Of a stretch of 64,000 nt of DNA, positions 1-64,000 are shown in pieces (position 1 is the stretch's first letter; each line of letters starts with the position of its first letter). Where the stretch lies: positions 10,286 to 74,285 of IMG/VR virus record IMGVR_UViG_3300009509_000013. One strand, written 5' to 3'. This stretch comes from a virus. The position numbers were made by a program, and so were the translations under genes. The notes under the pieces were generated by a model. That model had not been told where the DNA came from. It did no database searches and was given only the letters and a program-made list of their open reading frames with translations.

Positions 1-2
1 TC

Positions 3-3000
3 GTAACCCGCCATCCAATCCATTGAATCGTAAAGCCCGCCCGTGTTCGTGCTTCGATCCAATTGCAAGCGCGAATGCTTTTGACCGTCCCAATAGAGCC
101 CCTTCCGCGCGATCAATTCGATCCCGCCGTTCGTATCCGAAGACGTGTCATAGGCATTGATTGATTGCCGGTCGCTTCCGCCCATCCAAATGTTCGCGTC
201 GGAATAGCTATAGCCGGTCGGAGCGCTCGGAACCGTCGTCATTGTTCCGATTGTCAAATGGGTGTAAGTCGCCCCGATGATCTTGACCGAATCGGTTTCG
301 GGCGCGACGTAATTCCCAACGGAAAGCCCGTTTCCGACTTCAACGCCGTTGACGTTGATCCGCATTCCGTGAGTTCCGGCGGCGTAAAAGTCCATCCAAT
401 TGTTGCCGCGATAATAGAGAATGTAATCGTTCGCGTCGAAGTTGAGAACGGGATTCCCGCTATTGTACGCGAGATAAACATTCGAATATGCGTTCAAAGT
501 CCCGTCGATCATGTAGGTGTTCGCGCTAACTTGGATCTGACTGCTCGAAGCGTAGCACGAAGACGACCCGCCAAATTCGCAACGATTGTTGGCTTGCGAA
601 ATCACAAGCGTCGAGTTCCAACCGGGAACCGCGTCGCCGTCGCTCGCCGGGGTCGTTCCGCTCAAAGTGTAAAAAGTGAACCCGCCGCCGTCCATAAGCA
701 TTCGAGCCGGATTCTCGCCGCCGGCGTGAACCTTCCAAGTCGAGCTTTCATAGTCACAATTCCAAGTGAAATTGACGCGACCCGATCCGTTTTGAACGGA
801 CCAAACCGCGCGACCGCTCGACCCGCCGGCAATTGAAATTCGATTCGTGCTAGGACTAGGCCCGACATTCGTCGCCGGAACAAGATCCGGGTGAACGTCG
901 ATTTGACCCCATTTCCCGATTTGAAGTTGCCGCGTCGGGCTTGTCCCGCCCGACCAAACGCCGAACGCGGTCCAATTGACTTGATCGTCGGAATTCGTTG
1001 AATCCGCAAACGGGAACACAACGCCGAAAGCCGGATTCTTCAAGCTCGGTTCAAGGAAATCGTTCGCGACGTCAACAATGATTCCGCTTCGTCCCGACGT
1101 CGTGATCAACCGCGCGTTCGGTCTGTCGAATTGCGTTGTCCCATATGACAACGTTGAAGAATGCGCGCCCGGATCTAGCGTCAAGAATGCGCCGGTGAAT
1201 TCGGTTCCGGTTGCTCCCGTCGCTCCGACAATATCCGAGTTCGCCGAAAGCGTGATATTGCTTCCGTTCAAAACGGAAATCGCGCTATTGAACGTCGCGG
1301 TTCCCGTGACGCCGAAACCGCTCCCCATTGTCAACGCGCCGCCGAAATAGCTTGGCGTCGTTCCCGCCGTGTAGACCGCCCAATTTGACGACGTTCCAAT
1401 CGTTTGCGCGTTCACATAGACACCGTAAACGTTCGTCGGCGATCCGGTGAAAGCTTCGACCCAATAGCCGATTGCGTTTGTCGCAACGCCGCCGCCCGTG
1501 TCGTAATTTTGAGCGCGGAAGCTTGCCGAAGTCGTGACGTTTCCGCCGCCGGCGACTTGAACGACGCCCGACGTTCCGACAAGCGTTTGAATCGTTCCGC
1601 TTGGATGCGTTGAAGCGGCGTATCCGCCAAGCCCCATTTTCAAGCCCGTGTCCGCCGCGCCGTATTGCCCGGAAAAATAGCCGACCAATTGGTTTTGTGC
1701 GACCGCGCCGGCCCAAGTGCCTTGAACAAGCATTCGATACGAATTCGCGTCCGGGGTCGTCGCTCCAATGCCGACCCAATTCGTCGCAATCCGCATTTGT
1801 TCGCCGCCGGCTCCGGTTCGAAAAGCAAATTCACCTTGATTCGCCGTTTCGAAACGGAATCCGCCGTTCAACGTTCCCAAATTTCCGACTTGAAAGTGAT
1901 ATTCAAGATCGGTCGGATCGGTCAAAGTTGTCGATCTTTGGTGAACCGAAACGCGCCCATAGCGCGGCGATCCGCCTTGCGTAACTGTCGGCCCGGAAAA
2001 GTGAAAGCCCCGCCAAAATGGGTTTTGTGCGTCCGTCCCGCCTAGCGGCCAAAAAACAAAATAGCCGGTGTCGGGTTTCGAAACGTTCAAATTCCCGTTT
2101 GAATCAAGTTGAATGTCAGAGCCGCCGGAAACGTCCGAACGCTCGATTCGAATCGCCGGGGTTGAAGTCGAGTCGATATGAACGCGCGCCGCCGGCGGAT
2201 TGTTCCCGTCGCCGATTGCGATCCCTTGCGAATAGTGACCTTCCGCCCAACGTCGAACGCTTGAACCAATGTCTTGCGAATTGTCGACCGCCGGCAAGAA
2301 ATCGCCGGAGAACGACAAATTGATCACATAGAGATCCGAGAACCGCTTCGTCGGCGTTCCGAGCGCCGCGCCGCCGTTCACGTCCGGTTCAATGTCGTCA
2401 TTGACGCGGGTCTTCCCCGTAATGTTCAACGAATAGCCGGCGGCGTCGAAGCCGCCGATTCCGACACGCCCCGTCGAGCCGTCGACATAGAACTTCGTAT
2501 TCGCCGCGACCTTGTGACTCCAATCGCCGCGAATCGTGTGTGAATCAACGTCGTCGTCGTCGCCGGCGGTCAAGTTGTTTGTGATCGTTTCGCTCGAATT
2601 GACTTGAACGACGTTTTCTTGCGTCGTCGTCCCTTTGACCCAAAGATTCCCGTTTTTGTCGACTTCAAAAACCGGAGCGCCCGCCGTGTCGCGAACCGTG
2701 ATCGCCTTGATTGAATCCGTCGCGAAGCTTTTCACGTCGATCTTGACGTGACCGGAAACCGGGTCGCGTTTCGTAATGTCGCCAATGTCCGAAAGCGAAA
2801 AGTCGATCACGTTTTGCGACGCCGTGTTGAACGTCGCCGGCGTTCCGCCGTTGCCCGTGACCGTTCCCAAAAAAGCGTGCTCGCCGCTTGAAGAAACCGA
2901 GCCGTTCCGCCAAATCGTCGGACCTAGAAGAATGACTTCATAGTCGCTTGCCGTCGTCGAAATCGCCGCGCCTTGACCGAGATCGCCGGTCGTCGTGATC

Positions 3001-3584
3001 TTGTTCGCTCCGCCGCTCCAAACGACCGAGCGCGTTTCAATCGCCACGCCCGGAAGCGTCCCGTCTTTTGCCGGCGACTTCCGAAAGACCATAACTTGAC
3101 GCCCGGCATTCGAAACGCCGGCTTCCGTGACCGAATTGACCGTGAACGTGATCGTCCCGTTTCCATTGTCGACAACCGCGTCGGGCTCCGCCCTTTCTCC
3201 GATTGTTTCAAGCTCGCGTTCGTATTCCGGGAAGCCGGTTCGCGGATTGATTTGAACCCCGTCCGGCTTCGTCGTGTAGTGAAGCCCGACTTCGTAAGTG
3301 ATCCCGACTGCGTTCTCGAATTGAAGCCCGGAGTTCGGAGCAAGCGAAGGGTCCATGAAATGCCCGTCGCCGTCCGTGACCGCTTGAAGCCCCGTCAAAC
3401 GGATCTTGTTCGCGCCGTCGCCGGCGAGCCCTATCGCCGAATCGTAAACGCCGCCGACTCGAAAAGCCCGCTCCATTCCTTCGCGAATCGTTTCGCGCAT
3501 GAAGCCGAACCAACGGTCGCGAAAGTCTTCCGTTCCGAGCAATCGCTTCGGGGATAGATTCACAAATTCCGCATTCGTTGTCAT
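3..3584 (-). CDS. tail fibre / receptor-binding protein 2 (runs off the left edge; absent from ORF track)
   Basis: ATG at 3584 after AAGGGAG. Manual translation MTTNAEFVNLSPKRLLGTEDFRDRWFGF...PDGVQINPRTG...TTTQENVVQVNSSETITNNLTAGD parallels the N-terminus of 3957-7946. Frame spot-checked open at about 2050 and at 3-100; G/T/S-rich beta-type sequence. Confidence 0.85.
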   Translation of the reverse strand, partial: MTTNAEFVNLSPKRLLGTEDFRDRWFGFMRETIREGMERAFRVGGVYDSAIGLAGDGANKIRLTGLQAVTDGDGHFMDPSLAPNSGLQFENAVGITYEVGLHYTTKPDGVQINPRTGFPEYERELETIGERAEPDAVVDNGNGTITFTVNSVTEAGVSNAGRQVMVFRKSPAKDGTLPGVAIETRSVVWSGGANKITTTGDLGQGAAISTTASDYEVILLGPTIWRNGSVSSSGEHAFLGTVTGNGGTPATFNTASQNVIDFSLSDIGDITKRDPVSGHVKIDVKSFATDSIKAITVRDTAGAPVFEVDKNGNLWVKGTTTQENVVQVNSSETITNNLTAGDDDDVDSHTIRGDWSHKVAANTKFYVDGSTGRVGIGGFDAAGYSLNITGKTRVNDDIEPDVNGGAALGTPTKRFSDLYVINLSFSGDFLPAVDNSQDIGSSVRRWAEGHYSQGIAIGDGNNPPAARVHIDSTSTPAIRIERSDVSGGSDIQLDSNGNLNVSKPDTGYFVFWPLGGTDAQNPFWRGFHFSGPTVTQGGSPRYGRVSVHQRSTTLTDPTDLEYHFQVGNLGTLNGGFRFETANQGEFAFRTGAGGEQMRIATNWVGIGATTPDANSYRMLVQGTWAGAVAQNQLVGYFSGQYGAADTGLKMGLGGYAASTHPSGTIQTLVGTSGVVQVAGGGNVTTSASFRAQNYDTGGGVATNAIGYWVEAFTGSPTNVYGVYVNAQTIGTSSNWAVYTAGTTPSYFGGALTMGSGFGVTGTATFNSAISVLNGSNITLSANSDIVGATGATGTEFTGAFLTLDPGAHSSTLSYGTTQFDRPNARLITTSGRSGIIVDVANDFLEPSLKNPAFGVVFPFADSTNSDDQVNWTAFGVWSGGTSPTRQLQIGKWGQIDVHPDLVPATNVGPSPSTNRISIAGGSSGRAVWSVQNGSGRVNFTWNCDYESSTWKVHAGGENPARMLMDGGGFTFYTLSGTTPASDGDAVPGWNSTLVISQANNRCEFGGSSSCYASSSQIQVSANTYMIDGTLNAYSNVYLAYNSGNPVLNFDANDYILYYRGNNWMDFYAAGTHGMRINVNGVEVGNGLSVGNYVAPETDSVKIIGATYTHLTIGTMTTVPSAPTGYSYSDANIWMGGSDRQSINAYDTSSDTNGGIELIARKGLYWDGQKHSRLQLDRSTNTGGLYDSMDWMAGY

Positions 3585-3628
3585 TGCCTTTTGCTCCCTT
3601 GCGACTCGCGCGCCGTCACTTCAACCGC

Positions 3629-3943: not shown

Positions 3944-3956
3944 TGCAAGTCCCTTT

Positions 3957-23524: not shown

Positions 23525-24781
23525 CTACGCTTCAACCGTTGCGTTCATGTTTCCGTCCATGACGAACCGCTTCACACCGAAAATCGGTTTCGAATCTTCA
23601 ACGAAAAATAGCGCGTTCTCGATTCGAAAGCGAATTCTGCCAGTGTGAAGGTCGCCGGAGTTCGCCGGGGTCGTCATGTCAAATTCGTCGATAAGGAATA
23701 GCCGAAATCTTTCGTCCATTCCTACAGATTTTATTGTCGGATTGTTGGCGAAAAATCTCTTTATTTCGTCCGCCAACCTTTGATGATCAACGCCTTTATC
23801 CGTGATCAAGTGAAGCAAAACTTCAAGATTTCCTTGAAGGGGAGCGGGAATTTTCCAACCTTCCCCGGTCGCGCGATTCAAAACGTGATCGTCTTGACCG
23901 AGCTTCGACGCGCCGATCAAGTTTATGTCGTCGAGAATGATCGACGGAACCTTTTCGATCTCCGTGTAGTCTTGCGATGTCGTGACCGCGACTTCCGGTT
24001 CATACACAAACCGAATGAAAAGCACGTCGCCGGCGGCTTGCGCGCCGGTCAACGTGATCACTTGCGTTCCGACGTCGAACGAATCGAAGACGTCGGTCAA
24101 ATGCTCCGGGTCGTTCGTATGGTTGAAGACCGAATCGATCCCGGTCACGTTGTAAGGGGTTTCGAGCTTGTAATCGTTTTTGAGATCGACGGTTGACGCC
24201 GCCGCTTCAAGTTGAATCATGAAGCGCGAGATCGGTTGAAGCCCGCTTCGAATCAACGGAACAAGCGACCGATAGATCAAGTCGTCTTGAAACTCGATTG
24301 TCGATTCATACAAGACTTTGACCGCGTAAACGTAAGGGGAAAACGCCGCGTTCGTTGTCTTCAAATTGATCACGACTTGAAGCTTCCGCGCTTGAACGAC
24401 GCCGGGGAAGAAGCTCGCAATGTTCGCCGCGACTTCCGCTTCGGTGTTCCAATCGACCGCGTTCACTTCCCAAGTCGACCCGTTCCAAAAATATTCGTCG
24501 GTCCCGTCCGAAAGCCTGAAACCGAGCGACGTCACGACGACGCCGGCTTCGTCTTTGAAGTGATCGGCGATCACTTCGAAGCCGATCCATTGTTGAACGG
24601 TCGTCGGGTCCGTGACCCAAGTCTTCGCGAAAATGTCCGGGTCGGTCGAGAACGCTTCCCCGGCAAGTTGCAATCGGTTGAAGCCCGACGTCGGATTCAA
24701 GCGCGCGCCGGTCCCTAACACGATTCGCGAACGGTTTTCTTCTTCGAACGCGAACGTCTTGATCAACTTTGTCGTTTTCAT
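23525..24781 (-). CDS. tail completion / sheath terminator with N-terminal extension
   Basis: Directly upstream of sheath; ATG 24781 overlaps upstream TGA; C-terminal part resembles tail-terminator folds (KVPSIIL...D, LHLIT). Confidence 0.6.
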   Translation of the reverse strand: MKTTKLIKTFAFEEENRSRIVLGTGARLNPTSGFNRLQLAGEAFSTDPDIFAKTWVTDPTTVQQWIGFEVIADHFKDEAGVVVTSLGFRLSDGTDEYFWNGSTWEVNAVDWNTEAEVAANIASFFPGVVQARKLQVVINLKTTNAAFSPYVYAVKVLYESTIEFQDDLIYRSLVPLIRSGLQPISRFMIQLEAAASTVDLKNDYKLETPYNVTGIDSVFNHTNDPEHLTDVFDSFDVGTQVITLTGAQAAGDVLFIRFVYEPEVAVTTSQDYTEIEKVPSIILDDINLIGASKLGQDDHVLNRATGEGWKIPAPLQGNLEVLLHLITDKGVDHQRLADEIKRFFANNPTIKSVGMDERFRLFLIDEFDMTTPANSGDLHTGRIRFRIENALFFVEDSKPIFGVKRFVMDGNMNATVEA

Positions 24782-33792: not shown

Positions 33793-33806
33793 TTCCTAAC
33801 CTCCAT

Positions 33807-34160
33807 TCAAGCCGGATCGAACCGACGCTTGCCAATTCGCCGAAGCGAAACACGCGCGGCGCGTTGCTCCCGGTGAACCATAATGATTGCACGAATATCG
33901 CCCGCAAAGCACGTTATTCGCTCCCCGCCCTTCACTTTGCTTGCGGGATCGGGATCGATTATTTCGGGAAGATAAGAAACGCGGTCGAAGCCTTGCGGCT
34001 TGGGAAGGGAATATTGAACGCCGCTTTCCGTGACTGTGAATCCTGAAATCCGGGCTTGAAACTCCGGGTCTTTCAACTTTCGCAGCCATTCTTGCGCTTG
34101 CTCATGATCTGAAAGATCGATCCGTGAAGTCAATCCGTCGCATGTATGCACCTTGAACAT
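33807..34160 (-). CDS. hypothetical protein
   Basis: 117 aa; GAGGGGAG SD. Confidence 0.65.
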   Translation of the reverse strand: MFKVHTCDGLTSRIDLSDHEQAQEWLRKLKDPEFQARISGFTVTESGVQYSLPKPQGFDRVSYLPEIIDPDPASKVKGGERITCFAGDIRAIIMVHREQRAARVSLRRIGKRRFDPA

Positions 34161-34210
34161 GCGGCTCCCCTCTTGAGCAATGCGCCAAGCGAAGGTTGTC
34201 GCGTTGTTCG

Positions 34211-34543
34211 CTAGAACTTTTTCTTCTTCTTTTTGTCGTCGTCCGCTTCGCCGTCGCCGACTTCCGCCTTCGGATTTTCCTTCGGGTCGACCTTTCCTTC
34301 GGGCTTTTCCGCCTTCGGGGATTTCGCCAACGAACGCGCTTTGCCTTCGTCAACGCCGACGACGACCAACTTCGAAGCAACGTTTCCGTGCTTCGCCTTC
34401 AAGTGATCGAGTTCGTCGGGAGTCAAAACCAAAGTTGACCGGGGTCGGATATACAACGCGCCCTTTCGGGAGCGCTTGCAATCCTTCGGAAAGTCGTCAA
34501 CTTGGCAAGCTGTAACGCCAATTGGAACTTGCACAAGTGCCAT
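34211..34543 (-). CDS. small K-rich protein
   Basis: GGAGG SD before ATG 34543; poly-K C-terminus. Confidence 0.65.
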   Translation of the reverse strand: MALVQVPIGVTACQVDDFPKDCKRSRKGALYIRPRSTLVLTPDELDHLKAKHGNVASKLVVVGVDEGKARSLAKSPKAEKPEGKVDPKENPKAEVGDGEADDDKKKKKKF

Positions 34544-34600
34544 GTCTTCGCCTCCGTCAAAGTGTGACAAGAAACCGGCGAAGCCGGAGCCTAGCTTTCG

Positions 34601-34975
34601 CTAGGCCCGGCTTTTCCGTTTCTTCGTCTTTTTCTTACGAGCCCCGCCGCCTTCGTCTTCGGCGTCGTCGGGAGCCGCGTCTTCACCTTCGCCTTCGTCC
34701 GCTTCTTCGTCGTCGTCGACGATCCGCTTTCTTTCGTCGGCGGCGAGAACCGCCGATTCAAGGCTTGGGTTTGTTGCGTCTTCCGCCGGAGCTTTCGCTT
34801 TCTTCTTCGGAGCCGCTTCGAGCATTTGAACGGAATATTCCGACGCAACCTGATAATAGGCTATGTCGTCCGCGTTCGTGATCGTTTGCGGTTGTCCCTT
34901 TTTGAAAGTTCGACCCCTTGCCGTGTGACTCTGGCAACCGATAAGCTCAACCTTTGCCCTAACAAGATCTGCCAT
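34601..34975 (-). CDS. capsid-adjacent protein with acidic then basic tail
   Basis: GGAG SD; directly downstream of MCP. Confidence 0.65.
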   Translation of the reverse strand: MADLVRAKVELIGCQSHTARGRTFKKGQPQTITNADDIAYYQVASEYSVQMLEAAPKKKAKAPAEDATNPSLESAVLAADERKRIVDDDEEADEGEGEDAAPDDAEDEGGGARKKKTKKRKSRA

Positions 34976-35033
34976 TCTTGAGTCTCCAATCAAATAGCGT
35001 CGAGTGTCTTGCGACCCCTTGCTAGGTTAAAGG

Positions 35034-41656: not shown

Positions 41657-43456
41657 CTATTCTTCGTCGAGATCGTCGCCGTGATCGTGCTCCGATTCCG
41701 TGACTTCCGCGCGCCAACGCGCTTCGAGTCGCTTGTTCATTTGAAGCAAGCGTTCGACGATCACTTCGTCGCGGAAAAGATCGGGATCGGTTGCGCCGGT
41801 TAGCATGTCGATTGCCTTCAACGCCGTCACTTGTTGACCGGGCTCCGCCGGGTCCGCCTTGTTTTTGACCGCTTCGGCCATTTGCAGCGAAAACGGAACG
41901 TCGGGATCGATCCCTTCCGGGAATGGCGGGAGTTCGATTCCGAGAATATCTTCGAGCGCGATCCGCGCAATTCGCGGCGTCATGCCGCCCGTTTTTTCCG
42001 CGCCGCCCAAGATCTTCACAAGTTCCGTGTTGTCCGTTGTGTTCGGCGTGTTCGACTTGAACTTGTGATAAACGATCCCCATGACCGGGAACAAAATCCG
42101 ATTGACCCAAGAATCGAACGACGTTCGTTCCGGGTTGAAAACTTGTTCGTCGGCGAGCTTGCGCGACGACTCCGCCGTCGCTCGCGTGTAATCGTCGGAG
42201 CGCCCGACGAAGATCGGCGGAAGCCGGAAGACGCGACGAATCTTGTCTTGATTGTTGCCGCTATAGTTTTGAAACAAAGCGTCTTTGTGTTGCTCTTTGA
42301 CAAGCGGCTTGATCTCCATTTTGATTTGACCGCCGTCTTCGCCTTCGAGATCGCCTTCGCCTTCGAGAATCAAAAACTTCGAATAGTTGTCCGACCCTTG
42401 AATTTGCGACTCGACGAAATCTTTGATTCGGTTGATCGACCCTTGTGTCAATTGCCCGTTCGAAACGAGAACAACCATGCTTGGAATATTATTCGACTTG
42501 AAGGTCGTGAAATTTATTTCTTCGGCGGCGCGATCTCCAAAAATTGAAAGCAAGTTGCCAATGTAGCGCGGAAGACCATAGGGCGAACGCGCCGAATAGA
42601 TCTTGAAGTGAACGATTTCGTTCGCGCGGAAATTTTCGGGGAGATCTTCTTTCGCGACGTCGCCGGTTCGATTGTCGATCACGCGCGGATCGCCGAACTC
42701 TTTGAACCAACGCATTTTGAACGACCCGACATAGGAAAGATTTCGTCGAAGAATCGCGCGCGATTGCGCGAAGCGACGAAACCGCTTCCAAGTCGGAAGC
42801 TTCGAAACACGAACCGACCCGTCCGGTTGCCGTTCAAGAATCGGCATTTCGACGGGAAGCATTTCTTCGTCAATCGGCGAAAGCCGCATTTGATAGCTTG
42901 GAATATGGTTGAAGCCTTGCACGTCGCCGGCGACGTTCCGAATCACTTCGAGATAAGCGTTCCCCGTCGTTTCGAGATCTTTCCGAATTCGCTTTCGGGT
43001 TTCGGTGAAGTCTTCGTCAATCGTCGCATAGGCGAAGAAATTTTCGAGCCGAATCTTTTCGCCCTTCACGTTGTCGGCGAGCGCCTTCGGCGTTTTTTCG
43101 TTCATTTCGACGCGCGGAACGAACCGGAACCCGAAGCCTTCAATGTTCGTTTGCATGGCTTCGATACATTGGTTCAATTCCGAAGAATGTTCCGGGAGCA
43201 TTGCCAACGTGAGCAAGTCGAACGGCGGATCGATCAAGTTCCCCTTCGCCGCCATTGCTTGAAACGGGTCGTCGGCGAGTTCTTTCGATTTCCCGGCTTC
43301 CGAGAATTCATTCGGCGCGGCTTTCGTTATGCTTTCGTCGAGCCCGACGACAATCGCCCGGACCTTCGTCGCCGGTTGAAGCGACGATTGATTCGCTTGC
43401 GCGCTTTGTGCGTTTGCGTCTTTGTGCATGTCGACGATTTTTGTTTGTTCAATCAT
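41657..43456 (-). CDS. portal protein (PBSX/HK97 family)
   Basis: IDPPFD, DLETTGNAYLEV.RN, NEIVHF, YGLP, D..F..Y and FRLPPIFVG motifs. Confidence 0.93.
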   Translation of the reverse strand: MIEQTKIVDMHKDANAQSAQANQSSLQPATKVRAIVVGLDESITKAAPNEFSEAGKSKELADDPFQAMAAKGNLIDPPFDLLTLAMLPEHSSELNQCIEAMQTNIEGFGFRFVPRVEMNEKTPKALADNVKGEKIRLENFFAYATIDEDFTETRKRIRKDLETTGNAYLEVIRNVAGDVQGFNHIPSYQMRLSPIDEEMLPVEMPILERQPDGSVRVSKLPTWKRFRRFAQSRAILRRNLSYVGSFKMRWFKEFGDPRVIDNRTGDVAKEDLPENFRANEIVHFKIYSARSPYGLPRYIGNLLSIFGDRAAEEINFTTFKSNNIPSMVVLVSNGQLTQGSINRIKDFVESQIQGSDNYSKFLILEGEGDLEGEDGGQIKMEIKPLVKEQHKDALFQNYSGNNQDKIRRVFRLPPIFVGRSDDYTRATAESSRKLADEQVFNPERTSFDSWVNRILFPVMGIVYHKFKSNTPNTTDNTELVKILGGAEKTGGMTPRIARIALEDILGIELPPFPEGIDPDVPFSLQMAEAVKNKADPAEPGQQVTALKAIDMLTGATDPDLFRDEVIVERLLQMNKRLEARWRAEVTESEHDHGDDLDEE

Positions 43457-43466
43457 GGTCAACCCC

Positions 43467-44936
43467 TTACATAATGCCCGGTTCTTCGCGCCGTCGCTTT
43501 TTGCGTTTCAACTTGCTCGCCGTGATCGCCAAGTCGAGCGCGTCGAAGCCGTCTTTGTAGCGAAAATTAGGAAACAAAACCAACAAGTCGATCAAGTCGG
43601 TCAAGTTCTTTCGGAAGAAAACGCGCTTGTCTTCAAACATTGGCGACAATTTCCAAGCGCGCGTCACCTTGTCTTTGTCCGTGTGAATCGCCTTCAACCG
43701 AAGATTTTTGTCGCCGTCTTTCAAGTGCTGATATTGCGCGGCTTGGTAAGCGTTCGTTTCAATGCCGCAACGGATCGGGTCGTGCCTTCGATAGAACTCT
43801 TTGATCTTTCGCGTTTGATCGTTGAAGCGAAGGTGTCCTTCGAAGTAATCGATCACATAATGATCTTCGGTCTTCGTGTCGATTCCGACGACCGCAATCG
43901 CGAACTTGTCGGCTTTCTCGCTTTCCGAAATCGCCAAGTCAACGCCCATGAACACGCGAAGCCCGCCGGGGATCTCCGAATCGTCGACCTTTTGACAGTC
44001 GTCATATTGGAAGATCTCGCCCTTCATTGCTTCGGTGTCGCATTGGTATTGAGCGTTGAAAATGATCGTTCCCGACTTGCGCTTCTTTTCCTTGAACCAC
44101 TTCGGCGGATATTTGTCCGGCCAAGGCGAACGCCCGTCTTCGTCAAGCGCGGGAATGATTTGATGATGATCGGCGAGTTCGTTCGCGATCAAATGCCCAT
44201 AGAGATCGTCGAAGTGATAGCGCGTTCCTAGCCTATGGTGTTCCCCTCTATGCGGAACCGACTTGTCCGGCGGTTCAAGGCAAGGGTCGAGCGTTTGATA
44301 ATACCATTGACGAACGCGGTCGCGCATGTATTTCGTCCGCGTGTTGTCTTCGTCAACCAAGTCGTCGGAAAGGATCACGTCGTAATGTTTGCCGACGACG
44401 GCGGCTTCAACGCCGATGCAAGTGATCGTTGATTCTTTCGAATACTTCGTTCGGGGAGCGACTTCGATTTCGCGGTTGTCCCATTTTCCGACCTTGTGCG
44501 GATCGTAATACTCGCCGAAAAGTTCCGCGAAGCGTTCGTTCCCTTCAAGGTGTCCTTTGATTTCTTTTAGGAACGCTTCGCTTTGCGCGCTCGTTTTGCT
44601 CGCGATCAAAATCCGAATGTTCGGATCTTTCGCGAGCAAATGAAGCGACTTCGTGATCGTGCAAACGGTCGACTTCCCCGCGCCACGAAACACAAGTTGA
44701 AGGTTGTCCGGGTGAATGAATTGATAGCGAAGCAACGCCAAATGAAACGGTTCGATTTGATAGTCGAGAACCGCCGTCGCGAGAATGTCGATCCGGTTGT
44801 GATCGATGATCATTCGCCGGAGCCATTCGTTCCCCATTGCCCGATAGTGTCGGGCGAGATCTAGCAATTGCCCGCGATCCGCTTCTTCAATCGCTTTCGG
44901 CGAGCCTTGCAAAATTGGGAAAACGGAACTCGACAT
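43467..44936 (-). CDS. terL: terminase large subunit
   Basis: Walker A FRGAGKS, Walker B ILSDD, motif III GTRYH.DDLY, FNAQYQ, nuclease GVDLA and KDGFDA. Confidence 0.95.
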   Translation of the reverse strand: MSSSVFPILQGSPKAIEEADRGQLLDLARHYRAMGNEWLRRMIIDHNRIDILATAVLDYQIEPFHLALLRYQFIHPDNLQLVFRGAGKSTVCTITKSLHLLAKDPNIRILIASKTSAQSEAFLKEIKGHLEGNERFAELFGEYYDPHKVGKWDNREIEVAPRTKYSKESTITCIGVEAAVVGKHYDVILSDDLVDEDNTRTKYMRDRVRQWYYQTLDPCLEPPDKSVPHRGEHHRLGTRYHFDDLYGHLIANELADHHQIIPALDEDGRSPWPDKYPPKWFKEKKRKSGTIIFNAQYQCDTEAMKGEIFQYDDCQKVDDSEIPGGLRVFMGVDLAISESEKADKFAIAVVGIDTKTEDHYVIDYFEGHLRFNDQTRKIKEFYRRHDPIRCGIETNAYQAAQYQHLKDGDKNLRLKAIHTDKDKVTRAWKLSPMFEDKRVFFRKNLTDLIDLLVLFPNFRYKDGFDALDLAITASKLKRKKRRREEPGIM

Positions 44937-44941
44937 TCGCT

Positions 44942-45163
44942 TCAATGCTCCCCACCAAAACACGCATGATCAAGAAATTGAAACGCCGCGAAGATTTGTT
45001 CGGCTTCGGCTTGCGAGCGCGCCGCAATTTCAACCGACCCGCTTTCTTCGTCGGCGATCAACGCTTCGCGCCCGTCAACAAAGAATCGGTGAACTTTGCC
45101 TTCCGGTTGCGCGCCTTGATCGTAAACGAGAACGACGTTCGGACTATCGCTTTTCGACGTCAT
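44942..45163 (-). CDS. hypothetical protein
   Basis: 73 aa filling the gap before terL. Confidence 0.5.
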   Translation of the reverse strand: MTSKSDSPNVVLVYDQGAQPEGKVHRFFVDGREALIADEESGSVEIAARSQAEAEQIFAAFQFLDHACFGGEH

Positions 45164-45518: not shown

Positions 45519-45884
45519 TTACCGCTCCCAATCTTCGGACGTGAAACCGTTTGAACCCAACCGTTCCCGCGCCCAAGTGAAAACGACTTCGGGGTCGAAG
45601 TCGCGACAAGAGAACACGTCAAGTTTGACTTCACGGCGAAGCGGCCAAGCGTGAATTGCAACGTGTGACGTCGACAAAATCGCGCAAGCCGTCACGCCGC
45701 CTTCGTCTTCGAACGGTTCCCTTCCGAGCTTTTCAATTTCTAGCGGAACCGAAACGCTCAAAGTTCCGAGCGTCGTCATTCCGAGCGCTTCAACCAAATC
45801 GCAAACGGCGATCTTCATTCCGGCTTCGTCGTTCACTTTCGCCGGGTCGCAATCGCCGTCAAAAACAAGGTGTCTCCCGCTCAT
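45519..45884 (-). CDS. speD: S-adenosylmethionine decarboxylase proenzyme family protein
   Basis: G.HLV.D N-terminus; GGVT...ILSTSHVAIHAWP...KLDVFSC.DF matches the pyruvoyl AdoMetDC signature. Confidence 0.85.
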   Translation of the reverse strand: MSGRHLVFDGDCDPAKVNDEAGMKIAVCDLVEALGMTTLGTLSVSVPLEIEKLGREPFEDEGGVTACAILSTSHVAIHAWPLRREVKLDVFSCRDFDPEVVFTWARERLGSNGFTSEDWER

Positions 45885-47666: not shown

Positions 47667-48386
47667 CTAGGCGACGCGCAAAAGCGAACGTTCAACGCCC
47701 TTCGATTGTGCCTTCGCGCGCCTTCGCGCGTCAAGCTTTTTCAAGCAACGTTCGGCTTTTGTTTCGTATTCGTCGCGCCGCTTTTCTGTCGGCGAACAAC
47801 CCGCCGCCGCCAACCAATGCCCGGCGGCTTCCGAATAGCGAAGCTCCGCTTCGGCGTCGCGCGCGAGCTTCGCCCAATACGCCGGCGAACGTTGCTCCGC
47901 TTCGGAGCGCCGCTTTCGTTCGTAATAGTCAACCTTCGCTTGCCATTTCGACAATTGAGTTCGAAGCCGCTTGATCTTCGTCGTCAATTCTTTGACCTTC
48001 GCCTTCGCCTTGCGTTCCCGACCTTCCGACGCGAGCGCCGCGCGCTCCGCCTTCGACTTCGGTTGAAGCGGAACCTTCCGGCGAAGCTCGATCCCGTCGA
48101 CTTCAACCGCCATGATCCAAGGGTTTTCGGGAGCCGCGTCGCGACCGCCGGCGACGAACGCGCAACCCCAAGCGAGCGCTTGCGCGACCTTCGTCACGTC
48201 GACCGCGCCCTTCGGGATTCTCAGGCGAATTGACGACCGCCCCGCCCTAACTGTCGGGTGACTTTGCCGCGCGCCCGTGACCGTCAACGTCGCGCGCGTG
48301 ACGCCCCATTCGCGAGCGATCCGCGTGAACAAGCTTCGGAGATCGCGCCCGTTCAAGTCGGTCTTGTTCTCGATTGCGAGCTTCAT
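47667..48386 (-). CDS. hypothetical basic coiled-coil protein
   Basis: 239 aa; ATGA overlap with the receiver gene. Confidence 0.65.
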   Translation of the reverse strand: MKLAIENKTDLNGRDLRSLFTRIAREWGVTRATLTVTGARQSHPTVRAGRSSIRLRIPKGAVDVTKVAQALAWGCAFVAGGRDAAPENPWIMAVEVDGIELRRKVPLQPKSKAERAALASEGRERKAKAKVKELTTKIKRLRTQLSKWQAKVDYYERKRRSEAEQRSPAYWAKLARDAEAELRYSEAAGHWLAAAGCSPTEKRRDEYETKAERCLKKLDARRRAKAQSKGVERSLLRVA

Positions 48387-48721
48387 TTTTCCCCGCCTTT
48401 CGGTTGAAGCGCGGCTTCAATCGCCGCGCGAAGTGTCGTTCGACTTGCCGGCTTGCTCAAAATGGCGACCGCGCCAATCGGTTGAAGCGCCATTGACCCG
48501 GAGTGAATGACAACCGGAACCGGCGATTCTTCGAGAACGCGAGCCCCGCCGCCGTTCGGCATGACCCAATCGGAAACGACGACCGCCGCTTCGGAGTAAA
48601 GCGCCGCCGCTTCAACCGGGTCGCTCGCCGTCACGACGTCGAAGCCTTCCCGCCGAAGCTCGCGCTCGACCGCCTTCAAGATCTCCGGCGTGTCGTCGAC
48701 AATCAAAATCTTCGTGTTCAT
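48383..48721 (-). CDS. single-domain response regulator receiver (CheY-like)
   Basis: ILIVDD, phospho-acceptor SDWVMP..GG, IHSG and LSKP all present. Confidence 0.9.
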   Translation of the reverse strand: MNTKILIVDDTPEILKAVERELRREGFDVVTASDPVEAAALYSEAAVVVSDWVMPNGGGARVLEESPVPVVIHSGSMALQPIGAVAILSKPASRTTLRAAIEAALQPKGGEK

Positions 48722-51752: not shown

Positions 51753-52108
51753 TGATACGCGGCGACGACCGAAACCTTCCCGGCGATCTCGCGTTTGAAC
51801 TCCGCGACCATTTCGGGATCGAACGACCGGAACCGCGACCGGGAAGTCGACACGCCGTTCGCGCTTGTCGTCGACTCGCCGAAGATCGAAGCCGGGGTCG
51901 GTTGGTTCCAACCGTCAACGATCAAAATGAACGGAGCGAAGCCGCCGACGATCTCCGACTCGCTCCGCTTGCGCTTCGCGACGAAGCGAACGAACGGCGC
52001 GGCGTCGTATTGCGCCCAAGTCTTGCGCCCGTGTTCGATCAACTTCGCTTCAATCGCGATCACGTTTCCGAAAAGCTCGCTCTTTGTGTAAATCGTGACC
52101 TTTCGCAT
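51746..52108 (-). CDS. small early protein
   Basis: 120 aa; AAAGGG SD. Confidence 0.65.
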   Translation of the reverse strand: MRKVTIYTKSELFGNVIAIEAKLIEHGRKTWAQYDAAPFVRFVAKRKRSESEIVGGFAPFILIVDGWNQPTPASIFGESTTSANGVSTSRSRFRSFDPEMVAEFKREIAGKVSVVAAYHG

Positions 52109-52121
52109 TGTTCCGACCCTT

Positions 52122-52250
52122 TCAAGCCTTGCGGCTTATGGTTGCGCGCTTCGCGGTTCCGGTCGTCGGGCGAACTTGGCAAGCGTTCCCGGTTGCCAGC
52201 GTTGCCAGAATGACCATGATCGCGAATGCTTTGTTTGCCGTGTTCTTCAT
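52122..52250 (-). CDS. 42-aa signal-peptide-like ORF (not in ORF track)
   Basis: MKNTANKAFAIMVILATLATGNACQVRPTTGTAKRATISRKA* beginning at the cassette 4 start site. Confidence 0.45.
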   Translation of the reverse strand: MKNTANKAFAIMVILATLATGNACQVRPTTGTAKRATISRKA

Positions 52251-52320
52251 TCTATACTTAGTGTCTCATAAATCGGTTGAAGCGTCAAGCAAAAAACGCA
52301 AGAAAATCTGATTTTTTTCG
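52239..52320 (-). promoter_or_regulatory. early promoter cassette 4
   Basis: TTGACG (52288-52283)-CTTCAACCG...N17-GACACT (52265-52260)-AAGTATAGA-ATGAAGAACACG. Confidence 0.75.
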
Positions 52321-52364
52321 GGTTATTTTTCGGATATTTAGACGAAGGCGGCGATTTTTCGACG

Positions 52365-52392
52365 AAAACCGCCGGGAATCGAACCCGGCGGC
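52365..52392 (-). terminator. intrinsic terminator
   Basis: GCCGCCGGG-TTCGATT-CCCGGCGGT-TTTC after the stop at 52406. Confidence 0.6.
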
Positions 52393-52405
52393 TTGCGTTT
52401 CCGAC

Positions 52406-53020
52406 CTAGTAAAGCGCCTTGACCGCTTCGAGCAACCGGCGAGCCGTCACGACGTCGCCCGCGTCGATTGCCGCTTCAACGCGCGCGTGAAGCAAGTTCC
52501 GAGCGTCGGCGATTGCGTCGTTCGTCATGGGGATCGAAAGAACGTTCGCGGCTTCGGCGACCGGCTCCGCTTCAACCGTCGCGGCTTCGACGATTGCTTC
52601 GGCGGAGATCACAACCGCCGGAGCCGCGCGGAGCGCTTCAAGTTGCGCGTCGGCGGCTTCGCGAACCGAAACATGCTTATAGAAATCAACGTCGAAATAG
52701 TCGGTCATTGAATCGGAGTCGTCGCGATTGTAGGCTTCGACGATCCCGGCGATCTTGTCTTCGGTTTCCTTCCAAGCGTCGAGCGCTTCCCAATCCCGCC
52801 CATATTCGTCGTTAGTGTCGCGAAGCGTGACGAATTGAACCGGAGCTTCTTTGACGTCGACGGAAAGGCTTTGGCCCATGCTGTAACGGGAAATCCGAAC
52901 GCCGAACTTCCAACCCTTGCCGAAAGCGGCTTTCAAGTCGGCGCGAACTTTCTTCGCGACGTCTTTCAAGTCTTGCCCGTTCTCGAATTTGCTTCCAATG
53001 TATCCGCGTCCGTAACTCAT
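52406..53020 (-). CDS. LPD29-like domain protein
   Basis: AKKVRADLK..F...KFGVR...YSMG.S..V...YN.DDSDSMTDYFDV motif; GGCGGAG SD. Confidence 0.7.
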   Translation of the reverse strand: MSYGRGYIGSKFENGQDLKDVAKKVRADLKAAFGKGWKFGVRISRYSMGQSLSVDVKEAPVQFVTLRDTNDEYGRDWEALDAWKETEDKIAGIVEAYNRDDSDSMTDYFDVDFYKHVSVREAADAQLEALRAAPAVVISAEAIVEAATVEAEPVAEAANVLSIPMTNDAIADARNLLHARVEAAIDAGDVVTARRLLEAVKALY

Positions 53021-53047
53021 GATCTCCGCCTTTCTTGTTGTGTTCCG

Positions 53048-53136
53048 TTCTATACTCTTTGTCTCATAAATCGGTTGAAGCGTCAAGCAAAAACGACAAG
53101 AAAAATTGAAAAAACGACATGAATTTTTCAAATATT
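53048..53136 (-). promoter_or_regulatory. early promoter cassette 5
   Basis: TTGACG (53086-53081)-CTTCAACCG...N17-GACAAA; duplicated 56-bp upstream block. Confidence 0.7.
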
Positions 53137-53335
53137 CGGATTCATTGAAGATTTTCTTCAAAAAAAATTGCTTTTTTGGGGTCGATTTTTCTGAAATTAG
53201 GCTTCGACGGAGCCCCGGAACGGAGAAACCGGAGCCCCGTCGAGCCCGAACGGAACGGAACGAAGTCGATTCGTTGACCCGGCGAGCCCCGCCGGGAGCC
53301 GCCGGCGGTTAGCGCCGGCGGCTTTCGTCGTCGGT

Positions 53336-53869
53336 TCAAGCGGCTTCGGGAATCACGAACGCGCCTTTCGGCCCGATTCCTTCGACGCCGGGGAAGTAAG
53401 CCTTCAAGACTGCCCAAAGATTCCCCTTGTAAGCCGCCGGGAACGTGTTCAACTTGGCTTGTTTGTCCCAACGTCGACCGGGAACCCGGCGGAGCGCGGC
53501 GACAAAGCCTTCGAAGTCTTCGTCGGTCGGCTTGGCGCGGAGCCCGATCCGGTCGCCTTCGAGTTCGACGATCTCGACCGGGCGAACGCGCTTCACGATC
53601 CGGTCGGCGAGCTTGTCGCAACCAAGCGCGCGGAGCGCGGCGACGCCTTCGACGACCGCGATCCCGGTCTGTTCAAGCGCGATTGCGTAAACGATCCGAT
53701 TCGCTTCGGCGCGCTTGTCTTCGTCGAGCGACGCGACGCCGTATTTCTTCCGGCAATCGGGACCGAGCCCGGCTTCGACGGAAGCGGCGTCAACCAAGGG
53801 ACGACCGCAAGCGGCGCAATGGGTCGCGAGCATTTGCGTTGCGGGAGCGTTTTCATAGTTGCTTGACAT
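53336..53869 (-). CDS. DUF6011-like Zn-finger protein with C-terminal HARP-like domain
   Basis: CAACGRPL.D..S...GLGPDC and C-terminal VPGRRWD...FP; ACGGAGATC SD. Confidence 0.7.
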   Translation of the reverse strand: MSSNYENAPATQMLATHCAACGRPLVDAASVEAGLGPDCRKKYGVASLDEDKRAEANRIVYAIALEQTGIAVVEGVAALRALGCDKLADRIVKRVRPVEIVELEGDRIGLRAKPTDEDFEGFVAALRRVPGRRWDKQAKLNTFPAAYKGNLWAVLKAYFPGVEGIGPKGAFVIPEAA

Positions 53870-53898
53870 GGTTTCGATCTCCGTTGTTTGTGTTCCGT

Positions 53899-54084
53899 TC
53901 AACCCTTCGCGATTTCGACCGCCGCGCGATAGCTTGAAAGATTCTCGCCGCGACCGTCGACCGTTCCGATTTCAAAGCCGTCGCCGATCCGCGTGACGAT
54001 TCGCCCGAAGACAACCGCCGTCGCGCCTTGCGAAAGCTCGAAAAGCCGTTTCCGAATGTTCTCGATTTTCTTTGCGTTGTTCAT
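53899..54084 (-). CDS. small early protein
   Basis: AAAGGGAACGGAAC-ATG directly after cassette 6. Confidence 0.6.
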   Translation of the reverse strand: MNNAKKIENIRKRLFELSQGATAVVFGRIVTRIGDGFEIGTVDGRGENLSSYRAAVEIAKG

Positions 54085-54096
54085 GTTCCGTTCCCT

Positions 54097-54165
54097 TTCT
54101 ATTCTCAGTGTCGCAAATTCCCGCGTTCGTGTCAAGTCTAATTTCGAAAAAATTCACCTAAAAAG
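54097..54165 (-). promoter_or_regulatory. early promoter cassette 6
   Basis: TTGACA (54135-54130)-N17-GACACT (54112-54107); upstream block nearly identical to 49731-49764. Confidence 0.7.
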
Positions 54166-54241
54166 TGATAGGAAAAACGCCAAATATTCCGACAATTTGA
54201 CAGAAAATGACCGCGAGCGCTTCAACGAATCGGCGTTTTGC

Positions 54242-54270
54242 TTGTCGATTTTAGTCAAAGCGGATAGAAT
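54242..54270 (+). promoter_or_regulatory. sigma70-like promoter of the divergent HTH operon
   Basis: TTGTCG-N17-TAGAAT. Confidence 0.55.
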
Positions 54271-54325
54271 TGAAGAATCAAGATTGACGCCGGCGGAACG
54301 CCGGCAAAACGACGGAGTTCACAAA

Positions 54326-54583
54326 ATGCCAAGGGGAAGAACCGCGAAGGTTGAACCGAAGACGGAAGGCGCGCGCCTTTTGCTCGAAGCAATCGAGAAC
54401 GATCCGAAGCTCGACCAAACCCGCGCGGCGCGTGAAGCCGGGCTTCCGCTCGGATTGATCAACCATATCTTGCACGGAAGGCGAAGCCTTTCGCTTGAAG
54501 TCGCCGTGAAAATCGAAAAGCGCTTCGGCGTTCCGCCGGCGGCTTGGTTGGAGCCCGCGCGCGAAAGCCGGGAAGCCGCATGA
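54326..54583 (+). CDS. XRE/HigA-type helix-turn-helix regulator
   Basis: QTRAAREAGL...INHILHGRRSLSLEVAVKIEKRFGVP..AWL; GGAG SD before ATG 54326. Confidence 0.85.
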   Translation: MPRGRTAKVEPKTEGARLLLEAIENDPKLDQTRAAREAGLPLGLINHILHGRRSLSLEVAVKIEKRFGVPPAAWLEPARESREAA

Positions 54584-54687
54584 AGTTGATCGCCCTTTTG
54601 ATTGCGGCGTTCGCCCTTTTGATCGTGTCGATCTTTCTTCATGCGTTCGCCGGAACGCCGGCGAATTTTGATCCGCTCGATCCCTAG
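54580..54687 (+). CDS. 35-aa single-TM peptide (not in ORF track)
   Basis: ATGA overlap with the HTH stop; MKLIALLIAAFALLIVSIFLHAFAGTPANFDPLDP*. Confidence 0.5.
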   Translation: MKLIALLIAAFALLIVSIFLHAFAGTPANFDPLDP

Positions 54688-54702
54688 CGGTATTCTCCCG
54701 CT

Positions 54703-54978
54703 ATGCCATTCCCAAACGAACACGCCGCGCGACAAGTCGACCCCGGTCAATTCGAAAGCTTTCGCCGAACCAAGCCGAAAGGTTTTCCGAAAGGGGTTTC
54801 GGCGATCATAGGAATTCGAAGCAACGGGAAGACCGCGATTCAATCGCTTCGCTTCGACAAAAATCTTTGGACAGTAGCGCAAGCGCGAACGTGGCTTCGA
54901 AACAACAAGTTCAAAACGACAATCGAACCCGCGAGCGGAAAGCCCGTCAACAAAAATTTTTGGGGGAACGCCGTTTGA
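54703..54978 (+). CDS. stand-alone head-associated domain protein
   Basis: MPFPNEHAAR..DP..F..FRR...QSLRFDK..WT..QA..W resembles a module I recall fused to phage head proteases; ends VNKNFWGNAV. Confidence 0.7.
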   Translation: MPFPNEHAARQVDPGQFESFRRTKPKGFPKGVSAIIGIRSNGKTAIQSLRFDKNLWTVAQARTWLRNNKFKTTIEPASGKPVNKNFWGNAV

Positions 54979-60304: not shown

Positions 60305-60779
60305 TGTCGCCGCCTTTGCCAATGAAATTCGAACACGCCGCGAATTCTTCGCCGGCGTCGTCGACAACAAGCCCGCAAGCGAACGTTGACATTCCCGCCG
60401 CCGCGTTTCGTTCGACCGCCTTCGCTTCGCAATGCGGACAAATGCCGCCCGGAGTCGAATCGGCAAGCAATCGCCCCGCGTCGAAGATCCATTCGCCCGA
60501 AGCAATCGCCGAACGCCAAAGCGCGCCAATTTCGACAAGCCGTTCAAGGTGCATTCGAATCGAATCTTCGATCAAGCGCCCCGCCTCTTGCGGCGAAAGC
60601 GTGATTCCGCCGGCGATTCGTTCATTCACTTTGCCGATCACGAATTCGGCCAAGCTTTCGGGAACGCCTTTCTCGAAGTGAACGTTCGTCATTCCATACG
60701 GCGAAGCCGCCGCGTTGAAGTTCGGGATTCGAGCGCGTTTCCCCGCCGGTCGAACATACATTTCAAAACTTCCCTTCAC
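60297..60779 (-). CDS. hypothetical protein with CPHC Zn motif
   Basis: GTGA overlap; CPHC...FACG...C. Confidence 0.6.
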   Translation of the reverse strand: MKGSFEMYVRPAGKRARIPNFNAAASPYGMTNVHFEKGVPESLAEFVIGKVNERIAGGITLSPQEAGRLIEDSIRMHLERLVEIGALWRSAIASGEWIFDAGRLLADSTPGGICPHCEAKAVERNAAAGMSTFACGLVVDDAGEEFAACSNFIGKGGDNG

Positions 60780-60976
60780 GAAACGAATTCAAGCGCGGCG
60801 TCGTAAGCTTCGCGCGCCGTTCGCCCCGCTTCTTTCATTGCCCGTTCAAGCTCCGCGTCGTCGTCGACGTTGACTTCGCCCTTCGCCGCTTGCGACGTGA
60901 CGATTTGAATCGCGATTTCTTTGATCCGTTCCCGCCTATGCTCCGGCGTTCCGGGCGCGTAATCGTTTGACGACAT
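60776..60976 (-). CDS. small helical protein
   Basis: ATG 2 nt after the ligase stop. Confidence 0.6.
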   Translation of the reverse strand: MSSNDYAPGTPEHRRERIKEIAIQIVTSQAAKGEVNVDDDAELERAMKEAGRTAREAYDAALEFVS

Positions 60977-60978
60977 GA

Positions 60979-62795: not shown

Positions 62796-63112
62796 TTCGC
62801 CGGCTCCCCTTGCGGCTCCGGTTCCTTCAACTTCACGACGAAGCCTTCGCCGGAATGTCCGTCGTTCTTTGCCGTGACATGCTCGACAACGGGAACGCAA
62901 TTGTCTTTGAATTGCGTCGCAAGGTAGCATTGAACCGCTTCGATCATTGTCGTTTGATTCATTCGGAGTTCATTCGAGCCTTTCAGCATTGGTCGACCTT
63001 TCTTCAATTCTTTGAACGCTTCGCCCAAAGGACAACCGTCCGCGTGTTCGCGAAAGCCATTTCGTCGCGAGCCTTTGCAACAAGCGATTGACCCTTTGGA
63101 AAAGTCGGGCAT
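62792..63112 (-). CDS. hypothetical protein
   Basis: TAATG coupling; KGSNEL..N..TM.EAVQ.YL motif. Confidence 0.55.
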   Translation of the reverse strand: MPDFSKGSIACCKGSRRNGFREHADGCPLGEAFKELKKGRPMLKGSNELRMNQTTMIEAVQCYLATQFKDNCVPVVEHVTAKNDGHSGEGFVVKLKEPEPQGEPAK

Positions 63113-63564
63113 TAGTTCAACGCCTTGTCGCAAGCGCGACGCTCGCGTTCGGCGTCGCATTCTTCGCGCTTCGGGCATGTCTCGCAATCGGGCGGCGAAA
63201 TCGTGTCTTCGATTTTCTCGATTGACCCGCGAAGGCTTTGAAGCACGAACGCGGGAACGTCCGCGTCTTCGTCGACGTGATCGAGCGCGAAAACCGCCGC
63301 GTCGTGAAGCGAACGAAGTTCGTCTTCCGTGAACATTGGTCCGAACGTCAACGGGTCGTTTTGCGCCTTCGTCATTTCCGCCGCCGCGTTGTTCGGATCT
63401 TTGCAAACGGCGATCCGTTCAAGCCAAGCCTTCGCGTTCGGAAACGGAACGCGCTTCCCGCCGTCGTATTGATTCAAAAGCGTCGCATAGTGCGATTGAA
63501 GTCGAACCGACTGTTCAAGCGCGCCCATGATTGCCGCGACGAATTCTTTTTCTTGTGCCTTCAT
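63112..63564 (-). CDS. hypothetical protein
   Basis: ATGA overlap; ALEQSV.LQSHYA.LLN.YDGG.R motif; C-terminal Cys cluster. Confidence 0.6.
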   Translation of the reverse strand: MKAQEKEFVAAIMGALEQSVRLQSHYATLLNQYDGGKRVPFPNAKAWLERIAVCKDPNNAAAEMTKAQNDPLTFGPMFTEDELRSLHDAAVFALDHVDEDADVPAFVLQSLRGSIEKIEDTISPPDCETCPKREECDAERERRACDKALN

Positions 63565-63803
63565 TCTTTCGTTCCGCCCTTCGACACGGGAACAAGCTCC
63601 CGCCCGCGAACTTCGACGCCCAAATCTTCGAAAACGTCGCCGTCTTCGCAAACGTGAACGACTTTCTTCCCGTGCGAAAGCTCGCGCCCTTTGAAAATGC
63701 CGGCGACGCAAAGCCAAGCGCCGTCGTCTTGAACTTGGACAAGCGACGGAATGCCGATCCCGCCGCGAACAACAATGAAGCTCCCCGGTTCAAACGCCGC
63801 CAT
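63561..63803 (-). CDS. small beta-rich protein
   Basis: 80 aa; AAGGGA SD. Confidence 0.55.
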   Translation of the reverse strand: MAAFEPGSFIVVRGGIGIPSLVQVQDDGAWLCVAGIFKGRELSHGKKVVHVCEDGDVFEDLGVEVRGRELVPVSKGGTKE

Positions 63804-63999
63804 TTCGTTTCCCTTCGAGTTCGGCGATTTTCGCCTTCAACTTTTCGTTCTCGATCCGTCTTTCTTGCGCGAGCATTGAAAGCGCTTCTTTGTCCGCGTG
63901 TTCGAAACACATTACAAGACCGGGAACGACTTCGTTCTCGCATTGACCGAGCGACGCCCCGCCGATCACAACGGACGGGTGAACCGAAACGCGATTGAC
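63790..63999 (-). CDS. C-terminal part of a gene entering from the right edge
   Basis: Open frame VNRVSVHP...CFEHADK...KIAELEGKRNGGV*. Confidence 0.5.
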   Translation of the reverse strand, partial: VNRVSVHPSVVIGGASLGQCENEVVPGLVMCFEHADKEALSMLAQERRIENEKLKAKIAELEGKRNGGV

Positions 64000-64000
64000 G

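Follow-up and report, generated by a model that had tools for sequence, protein, structure and literature searches.

Genome-wide loss of CAG/CTG alongside more than one hundred restriction-type words in a tailed-phage genome

The DNA analysed here raises the question of why a phage genome should be almost devoid of CAG and its complement CTG (together CWG, W being A or T). The stretch, hereafter the window, comprises 64,000 nucleotides (nt) and corresponds to bases 10,286-74,285 of the 74,285-bp contig IMGVR_UViG_3300009509_000013 (L015), a single IMG/VR viral record that IMG/VR classes as linear and whose CheckV completeness is ~73%; all coordinates are window positions. Its G+C content (GC) is 55.6% and flat across the window. 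An original prediction, made from the sequence alone, had called CAG and CTG nearly absent, and counting bore this out more strongly than had been stated: the plus strand of the window carries 41 CAG against ~1,000 expected from base composition and 75 CTG against ~1,180, giving observed/expected ratios (o/e) of 0.04 and 0.06, or of 0.10 and 0.16 against a first-order Markov model. The window has 116 CWG sites in all and the whole contig 138 (o/e 0.054 by base composition and 0.13 by a maximum-order Markov model), where ~1,270 would follow from base composition and ~1,750 from encoding the phage proteins with the codons of relatives, and CWG is the lowest of all 32 strand-symmetric trinucleotides. 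Back-translation of the phage proteins with the codon usage of relatives gave an expectation of 844-998 CAG and 812-877 CTG, where the coding strand has 75 and 38. Between 40,000 and 45,000, for which about four sites had been estimated by eye, there are exactly four (40513, 41885, 43728 and 43996) against ~170 expected, and the residual sites are evenly spread, with the early, structural and replication parts each having ~1.8-1.9 per kb. Depletion is at least 4.7-fold in all 16 NCAGN flank contexts and runs tenfold deeper where CWG is flanked by C/G (o/e 0.013) than where it is flanked by A/T (0.13). The central base is decisive, as GCSGC (S being C or G) has 489 sites versus 4 for GCWGC, and CCSGG has 263 versus 0 for CCWGG, the two W-containing words each being expected 197 times. 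CAGCTG, CTGCAG and CAGN3CTG are all at zero, and many Type IIS/IIG words containing CWG are also lost.

Public runs of several independent studies, with labels that include marine sediment and soil, contain near-identical sequence, and over 20 kb of the window the contigs of four such studies are 99.7-100% identical to it, which shows that the sequence is natural and reproducible. Comparison of these contigs yielded just 17 clean single-nucleotide polymorphisms, one creating a CWG and none removing one, which is too few for a polymorphism test. A tape-measure protein and a peptidoglycan-degrading endolysin identify the virus as a tailed phage of a bacterium. A cultured-phage collection gave no megablast match, and the large terminase (TerL) is <30% identical to every record in it.

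Codon usage follows the loss as predicted, leucine being encoded mostly by TTG, CTT and CTC (39%, 35% and 21%, with CTG at 1% and CTA at 3%) and glutamine by CAA (96%, with CAG at 4%). Confinement to in-frame codons, which the original prediction had named as the pattern that would speak against it, was not what we observed: coding-strand frames 1, 2 and 3 contain 25, 35 and 15 CAG and 11, 23 and 5 CTG, respectively, and intergenic DNA contains 11 CAG and 14 CTG against 110 and 133 expected. Codon choice is moreover sensitive to the following codon. Two-fold NNY codons (Y being C or T) end in C in 67% of cases generally, but in only 13 of 187 (7%) before TGN or AGN, and the share of NCA and NCT codons falls from 15% and 14% before a non-G base to 2% and 1% before G. 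The off-frame and intergenic loss, together with this neighbour-dependent codon choice, therefore excludes transfer RNA (tRNA) supply or a purely in-frame cause as the explanation, and tRNA adaptation or an anticodon nuclease as sole cause was rejected on the same grounds, off-frame and intergenic CWG being equally depleted. The loss of CWG acts on DNA, not on codon choice, and the avoidance is independent of frame and strand. The predicted selection on DNA against a very short target, rather than tRNA adaptation, is upheld by these observations and by the zero counts of the longer CWG-containing words.

A larger picture, absent from the original prediction, is that CWG is one item among more than 100 purged restriction-type words. 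The purge is genome-wide and runs on through the contig's other 10,285 bp, and CWG is its shortest item. For more than 100 of the avoided words the sequence is a known restriction-modification (R-M) recognition sequence; bare CWG matches no enzyme that we found. When sites were screened with the REBASE list shipped with Biopython, 123 of the 573 specificities expected at least 10 times had zero sites in the phage and 210 had an o/e <0.1. A 60 kb stretch of chromosome from a Myxococcota metagenome-assembled genome (MAG) that carries a related prophage had four zero-site specificities among 542 expected at least 10 times. Forty-one of the 64 hexamer palindromes are without any site in the contig, and for 19 of these the Markov model predicts 5-87 sites, among them CGATCG (87), CCGCGG (46), GGCGCC (41), TCCGGA (36), ACGCGT (27), CCCGGG (26), GAGCTC (21), CTCGAG (21), ACCGGT (20) and GGATCC (18). 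Twenty others are at or above expectation, including TCGCGA (152 sites), TTCGAA (130), GTCGAC (116), AAGCTT (55) and GAATTC (48). The distribution is bimodal and is therefore not one of general palindrome avoidance. No shielding rule, by which residual sites would be retained where they overlap a protected word (e.g., GATC or GA/TC), was found among the tolerated and absent hexamers or the residual contexts.

Shorter and interrupted words show the same behaviour. TTAA is reduced to 2 sites, GTAC to 6 and GGCC to 54 against 340-443 expected, whereas GATC is 2.4-fold enriched at 675 sites; CTAG has 55. The non-palindromic words CATC/GATG, CCTC/GAGG, CCAC/GTGG and CTCA/TGAG have o/e values of 0.05-0.14, the loss affecting either orientation of each word (CATC/GATG 23/30; CCAC/GTGG 36/11). 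A scarcity of GAGG/CCTC and TTA/TAA had been predicted and was found across the contig (32 copies, o/e 0.05, and 337 copies, o/e 0.21), the added claim that it holds outside ribosome-binding sites being only loosely checked: 5 of 28 coding-strand GAGG lie at most 14 nt from called starts. Loss of gapped words is specific to the spacing, with GACN3GTC and GACN5GTC both at 0 versus 57 GACN4GTC and 44 GACN6GTC. GCCN5GGC has no site, the Type I-like word GAAN7TCC has 4 of 81 expected sites and CCAN7TTC has 2 of 35. The effects of the site purge appear to extend to the proteins, where the dipeptide Gly-Pro, every codon pair of which creates GGNCC, is roughly halved: 34 occurrences were observed against 80 expected (0.43), as compared with ratios of 0.70-0.80 in relatives and 1.13 in the Myxococcota chromosome sample. 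Among the 48 residual GGCC sites within genes, 13 are forced by Trp-Pro and 21 lie in Gly-Pro pairs, together 34 of the 48.

Around 35 related loci (portal 43-63% and TerL up to 70% identical) have CAG o/e values of 0.37-1.43 and no comparable purge. The prophage of the Myxococcota MAG, the nearest cellular match (TerL 59% and portal 60% identical), lacks it too, and the trait is therefore derived in this lineage. A search of 400 more Myxococcota genomes returned just two weaker matches; closer relatives by protein exist in the protein database (TerL 70-76%). The GC-matched prophage uses CTG for 18% of leucines and CAG for 56% of glutamines, and the MAG chromosome, with a GC of 57-60%, is TCGA- and GAA-rich like the phage background and has a CAG o/e of 0.76. 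The CWG-dense word CCAGCAGG is present in all 401 sampled Myxococcota genomes, a tally that takes in one unpublished genome (G196), from tens to thousands of times each; as a test for a host signature this tally is limited. A search for the host by receptor-binding protein gave no match. Three further viral contigs show parts of the pattern. L009 (IMGVR_UViG_3300041583_000566; portal 44% identical) has a partial purge of GTAC (0.15), CTCA (0.19), CCTC (0.20) and GGCC (0.33) and a CpG and TCGA excess like that of the present phage, yet its CAG stands at just 0.64. L038 (IMGVR_UViG_3300009509_000010) and L037 (IMGVR_UViG_3300022220_000003) are large phage contigs, each encoding an endolysin homologue at 52-54% identity; CAG/CTG is the lowest trinucleotide in both (0.37 and 0.52), the deficit in L038 holding in all contexts and frames, and neither has the GGCC/CCTC/GATG purge.

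The loss is thus DNA-level, genome-wide and lineage-specific, and it is joined with the loss of many true restriction-type words. We consider its probable basis to be passive avoidance of words read by exceptionally diverse DNA-targeting defences, with no protective methylase in the recovered part of the genome. Every site would be a place at which the DNA may be cut, directly or after marking, so that each loss of a site by synonymous change would be favoured, and over evolutionary time nearly every short word readable by the DNA-targeting defences of the host range would be removed, six-letter and interrupted sites reaching zero and the three-letter CWG, with ~1,300 sites at the outset, reaching ~5%. 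The agents would be restriction-modification systems or related nucleases, and CWG would be hit by stacked specificities (CCWGG, GCWGC, CAGCTG, CTGCAG and Type IIS/IIG/III words) plus some reader that accepts any flank. The original prediction had likewise proposed stacked R-M sites sharing CWG, and the extra-deep loss of C/G-flanked sites agrees with it; the loss in every flank context does not, and neither does the enrichment of words that are equally common in REBASE sites.

Several points weigh against this account. Literature searches turned up no enzyme, whether for restriction or methylation, and no other defence that recognises bare 3-bp CWG, and we know of none. With 138 sites left, a classical Type II enzyme would still kill the phage; selection per CWG site must therefore be less strong than against the hexamers, or of a different kind. 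How frequent a trinucleotide is in REBASE sites is no guide to its depletion in this phage (Spearman rho +0.29), and CGA/TCG, GAA/TTC and CGC/GCG are as common in those sites as CAG/CTG, yet enriched; a generic sum of all known R-M words was rejected for this reason. In favour of the account, scans of nearly all open reading frames with Pfam, PHROGs and NCBIfam revealed no methylase, nuclease or base-modification gene in the contig, and a phage-encoded methylase or nuclease was rejected accordingly, but with the contig ~73% complete a phage-encoded enzyme may have been missed.

A different proposal concerns the bare word. We tentatively suggest a new reader of the three bases C-A/T-G, a defence or a nuclease, that acts within the host range of this phage or is specified by phages of this kind, and whose footprint would be the ~20-fold flank-independent purge; agents of the same sort would then have left the milder flank-independent deficits of L038 and L037. 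To our knowledge such a reader has no described counterpart among prokaryotic restriction, modification and CRISPR (clustered regularly interspaced short palindromic repeat) systems. A rival view is that a single undescribed agent reads CWG itself and that the CWG purge, separate from ordinary restriction sites, is the footprint of that agent. It might cut or nick frequently, as a nuclease or nickase, or might methylate CWG and so expose it to methyl-dependent restriction, and it could be encoded by the host or by the phage for degrading host DNA. The depletion of all 16 contexts, with A/T-flanked sites still low, and the decisive central W both fit such an agent. So do the other contigs: L009 shares the loss of GTAC, GGCC, CCTC and CTCA without that of CWG, which makes the two separable, and L038 and L037 have CAG/CTG as their lowest trinucleotide, L038 without GGCC or CCTC loss. 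We nonetheless regard a single agent as unlikely. Beyond the failure of the literature search and of the gene scans to turn up a corresponding enzyme, 138 sites remain, the tenfold deeper loss of C/G-flanked sites points to several layers, and the related prophage, like the chromosome that carries it, has a moderately low CAG/CTG (~0.77) as its background.

Mutational decay, in which the CWG cytosine is methylated or otherwise highly deaminated on both strands and erodes to TWG/CWA without selection, appears very improbable. The product CAA/TTG is indeed raised (o/e 1.80 versus 1.29 in the GC-matched relative), the glutamine CAG-to-CAA and leucine CTG-to-TTG shifts are C-to-T changes, and a residue of ~5% resembles an equilibrium more than complete removal. 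The other product, TAG/CTA, is however lowered (0.24 versus 0.45), leucine CTA has fallen from 9% to 3% while CTT, which requires a transversion, has risen from 21% to 35%, and CA/TG is depleted overall (0.68). CCWGG is at exactly zero, the contig scans gave no methylase gene, the relatives are without the effect, and deamination cannot account for the dozens of unrelated 6-mers and gapped words that have no site at all.

The slightest chance goes to selection on RNA or translation, by scarce or nuclease-attacked tRNAs with CUG/CAG anticodons or by the site of a toxin that cleaves messenger RNA (mRNA), and to the further possibility of depletion of a CRISPR protospacer-adjacent motif (PAM): the near-absence of in-frame CAG and CTG among glutamine and leucine codons agrees with the former, and in a genome with 83 of its 88 called genes on the minus strand an mRNA reader of both CAG and CUG could pass for one acting on two DNA strands, but the equal loss off frame and between genes and the dependence of codon choice on the next codon exclude tRNA causes as sole cause. 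All other asymmetric words that the phage avoids have, moreover, gone in either orientation, as expected if double-stranded DNA is what is read. As for a PAM, which the original prediction had listed among possible targets, it is unlikely: protospacers would still be plentiful with 138 sites left, and we know of no CWG PAM. For the DNA-modifying defence that it had also listed, evidence was seen in neither direction. The prediction's own argument against tRNA adaptation, that the loss applies to both strands, was weak even though its conclusion stands, since CAG and CTG are mutual complements and RNA-level selection on one strand would look alike. PAM depletion is reported in some phage groups, the type I-C PAM TTC being named (PMC4246573); TTC is 2.4-fold enriched here.

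Two patches that had been flagged as rich in CWG are real, although they amount to mild local highs (Table 1). At 33793..34993 there are 12-16 rare 4-mers per 400 bp, and at 23630..23830 there are 11, relative to a mean of 4.4; the former patch has no Rfam match. Rare-word density in the patches is still at most about a quarter of the unpurged expectation. Foreign, unameliorated islands were rejected, rare-word density being uniform and the patches mild. No tRNA genes and no Rfam families were found.

Table 1 Features of the phage contig (window coordinates).
Feature	Position	Strand	Description
Small residual CWG cluster	23630..23830	-	Three CWG (23637, 23641, 23725) inside a 433-aa structural gene
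Mild residual CWG patch	33793..34993	-	Three small genes, one of them the ~118-aa gene of the next row, between a 518-aa structural gene and the major capsid region; 8 CWG in 1.2 kb versus a genome mean of 1.9 per kb
Likely ~118-aa gene	~33807-34160	-	Read from sequence; GAGGGGAG ribosome-binding site; inside a 418-bp gap left by the gene caller; 4 residual CWG
Portal and large terminase genes	41657..44963	-	Pfam Phage_portal, Terminase_6C/6N; used for identifying the phage and retrieving relatives
S-adenosylmethionine decarboxylase-like gene	45519..45884	-	Pfam AdoMet_dc, E 2.8e-19; ~0.6 kb upstream of the large terminase gene
CheY-like stand-alone response-regulator receiver domain protein	48383-48721	-	Pfam E 2.9e-11; among early genes
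Sole plus-strand gene block	51795-54978	+	Faces minus-strand early genes; includes HTH_3 repressor-like protein (53993-54583)
Structural proteins			Portal, large terminase, Mu-F-like protein, XkdF-type prohead protease fusion, tape-measure protein, tail fibre with S74 chaperone domain
Replication proteins			DnaB-type helicase, DnaC/IstB-like loader, UvsW-like helicase, ATP-dependent DNA ligase
Endolysin			Domains PG_binding_1 and Peptidase_M15_4 (peptidoglycan-degrading)

The AdoMet_dc-like gene is the only one in the contig conceivably linked to defences that depend on S-adenosylmethionine, whose level its product might lower; this is speculative, and it might instead be a polyamine gene. The arrangement of the plus-strand block and its HTH_3 gene resembles a lysis-lysogeny switch; an integrase was not found in the contig. 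The 9-mer CTTCAACCG occurs 69 times in the contig (40 on the plus and 29 on the minus strand) and its 11-mer form CGCTTCAACCG 42 times, each being expected less than once by chance. Copies of CTTCAACCG cluster in the divergent regulatory region near 51.6 kb (e.g., 51633, 51652, 51675 and 51744).

If passive avoidance is the correct reading, the words that this phage avoids outline in negative the defences it has met. The genome would then record an unusually large repertoire for an uncultured marine-sediment host, spanning Type II palindromes and gapped, Type IIS/IIG-like and Type I-like words, together with CWG, a target explained by no catalogued enzyme. It would be an extreme case of escaping the DNA-cutting defences of the host through having nothing to cut, with ~95% of CAG/CTG gone. 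A 3-base reader, if true, would represent a new class of frequent-cutting or marking enzyme and a new constraint on how phages encode their proteins. The genome also offers a natural example of the limits of rewriting coding sequence, having shed 41 hexamer palindromes, one trinucleotide and about half the occurrences of one dipeptide. Its missing words, taken together, predict the host methylome in a testable way and could link phage to host in long-read metagenomes.

Among known systems, CpG depletion by deamination of 5-methylcytosine, as seen in vertebrate genomes and their small viruses, resembles the present case in that a very short self-complementary word is reduced genome-wide to a low but non-zero level. 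It differs in that here one product word is raised and the other lowered, transversion-derived codons have gained as much, and unrelated 6-mers are at zero. A second comparison is with lytic phages such as coliphage T7, in which avoidance of restriction sites, that is, of short palindromes, was reportedly described in classical work by Sharp in 1986 and by Rocha and colleagues in 2001. As in T7-type avoidance, short words read by restriction enzymes are scarce in the DNA itself and the phage has no protective methylase of its own; unlike in T7, the scale is much larger. Counted per 40 kb, with 4-mers taken out of 136, the present phage lacks 42-43 hexamer palindromes, has 13-15 4-mers with an o/e <0.1 and a lowest trinucleotide at 0.05, the corresponding values for T7 being 19, 1 (GATC) and 0.59 and for halovirus HF2 50, 3 and 0.44. 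Literature searches found no case of a 3-letter word purged genome-wide. The HF1-group haloviruses have a comparably broad palindrome purge, which has been ascribed to diverse sequence-specific host defences (PMC7230728). They share with the present phage a genome of ~75 kb, a GC of ~56% and the absence of most hexamer palindromes, but they are archaeal myoviruses without homology to it, and their hallmark, zero counts of GATC and CTAG, does not apply here, where both words are retained and GATC is enriched. HF2 is also without a CWG purge, and its non-palindromic words are little affected. We found no published precedent for the purge of a trinucleotide together with many non-palindromic 4-mers; the broad palindrome purge that accompanies it has one.

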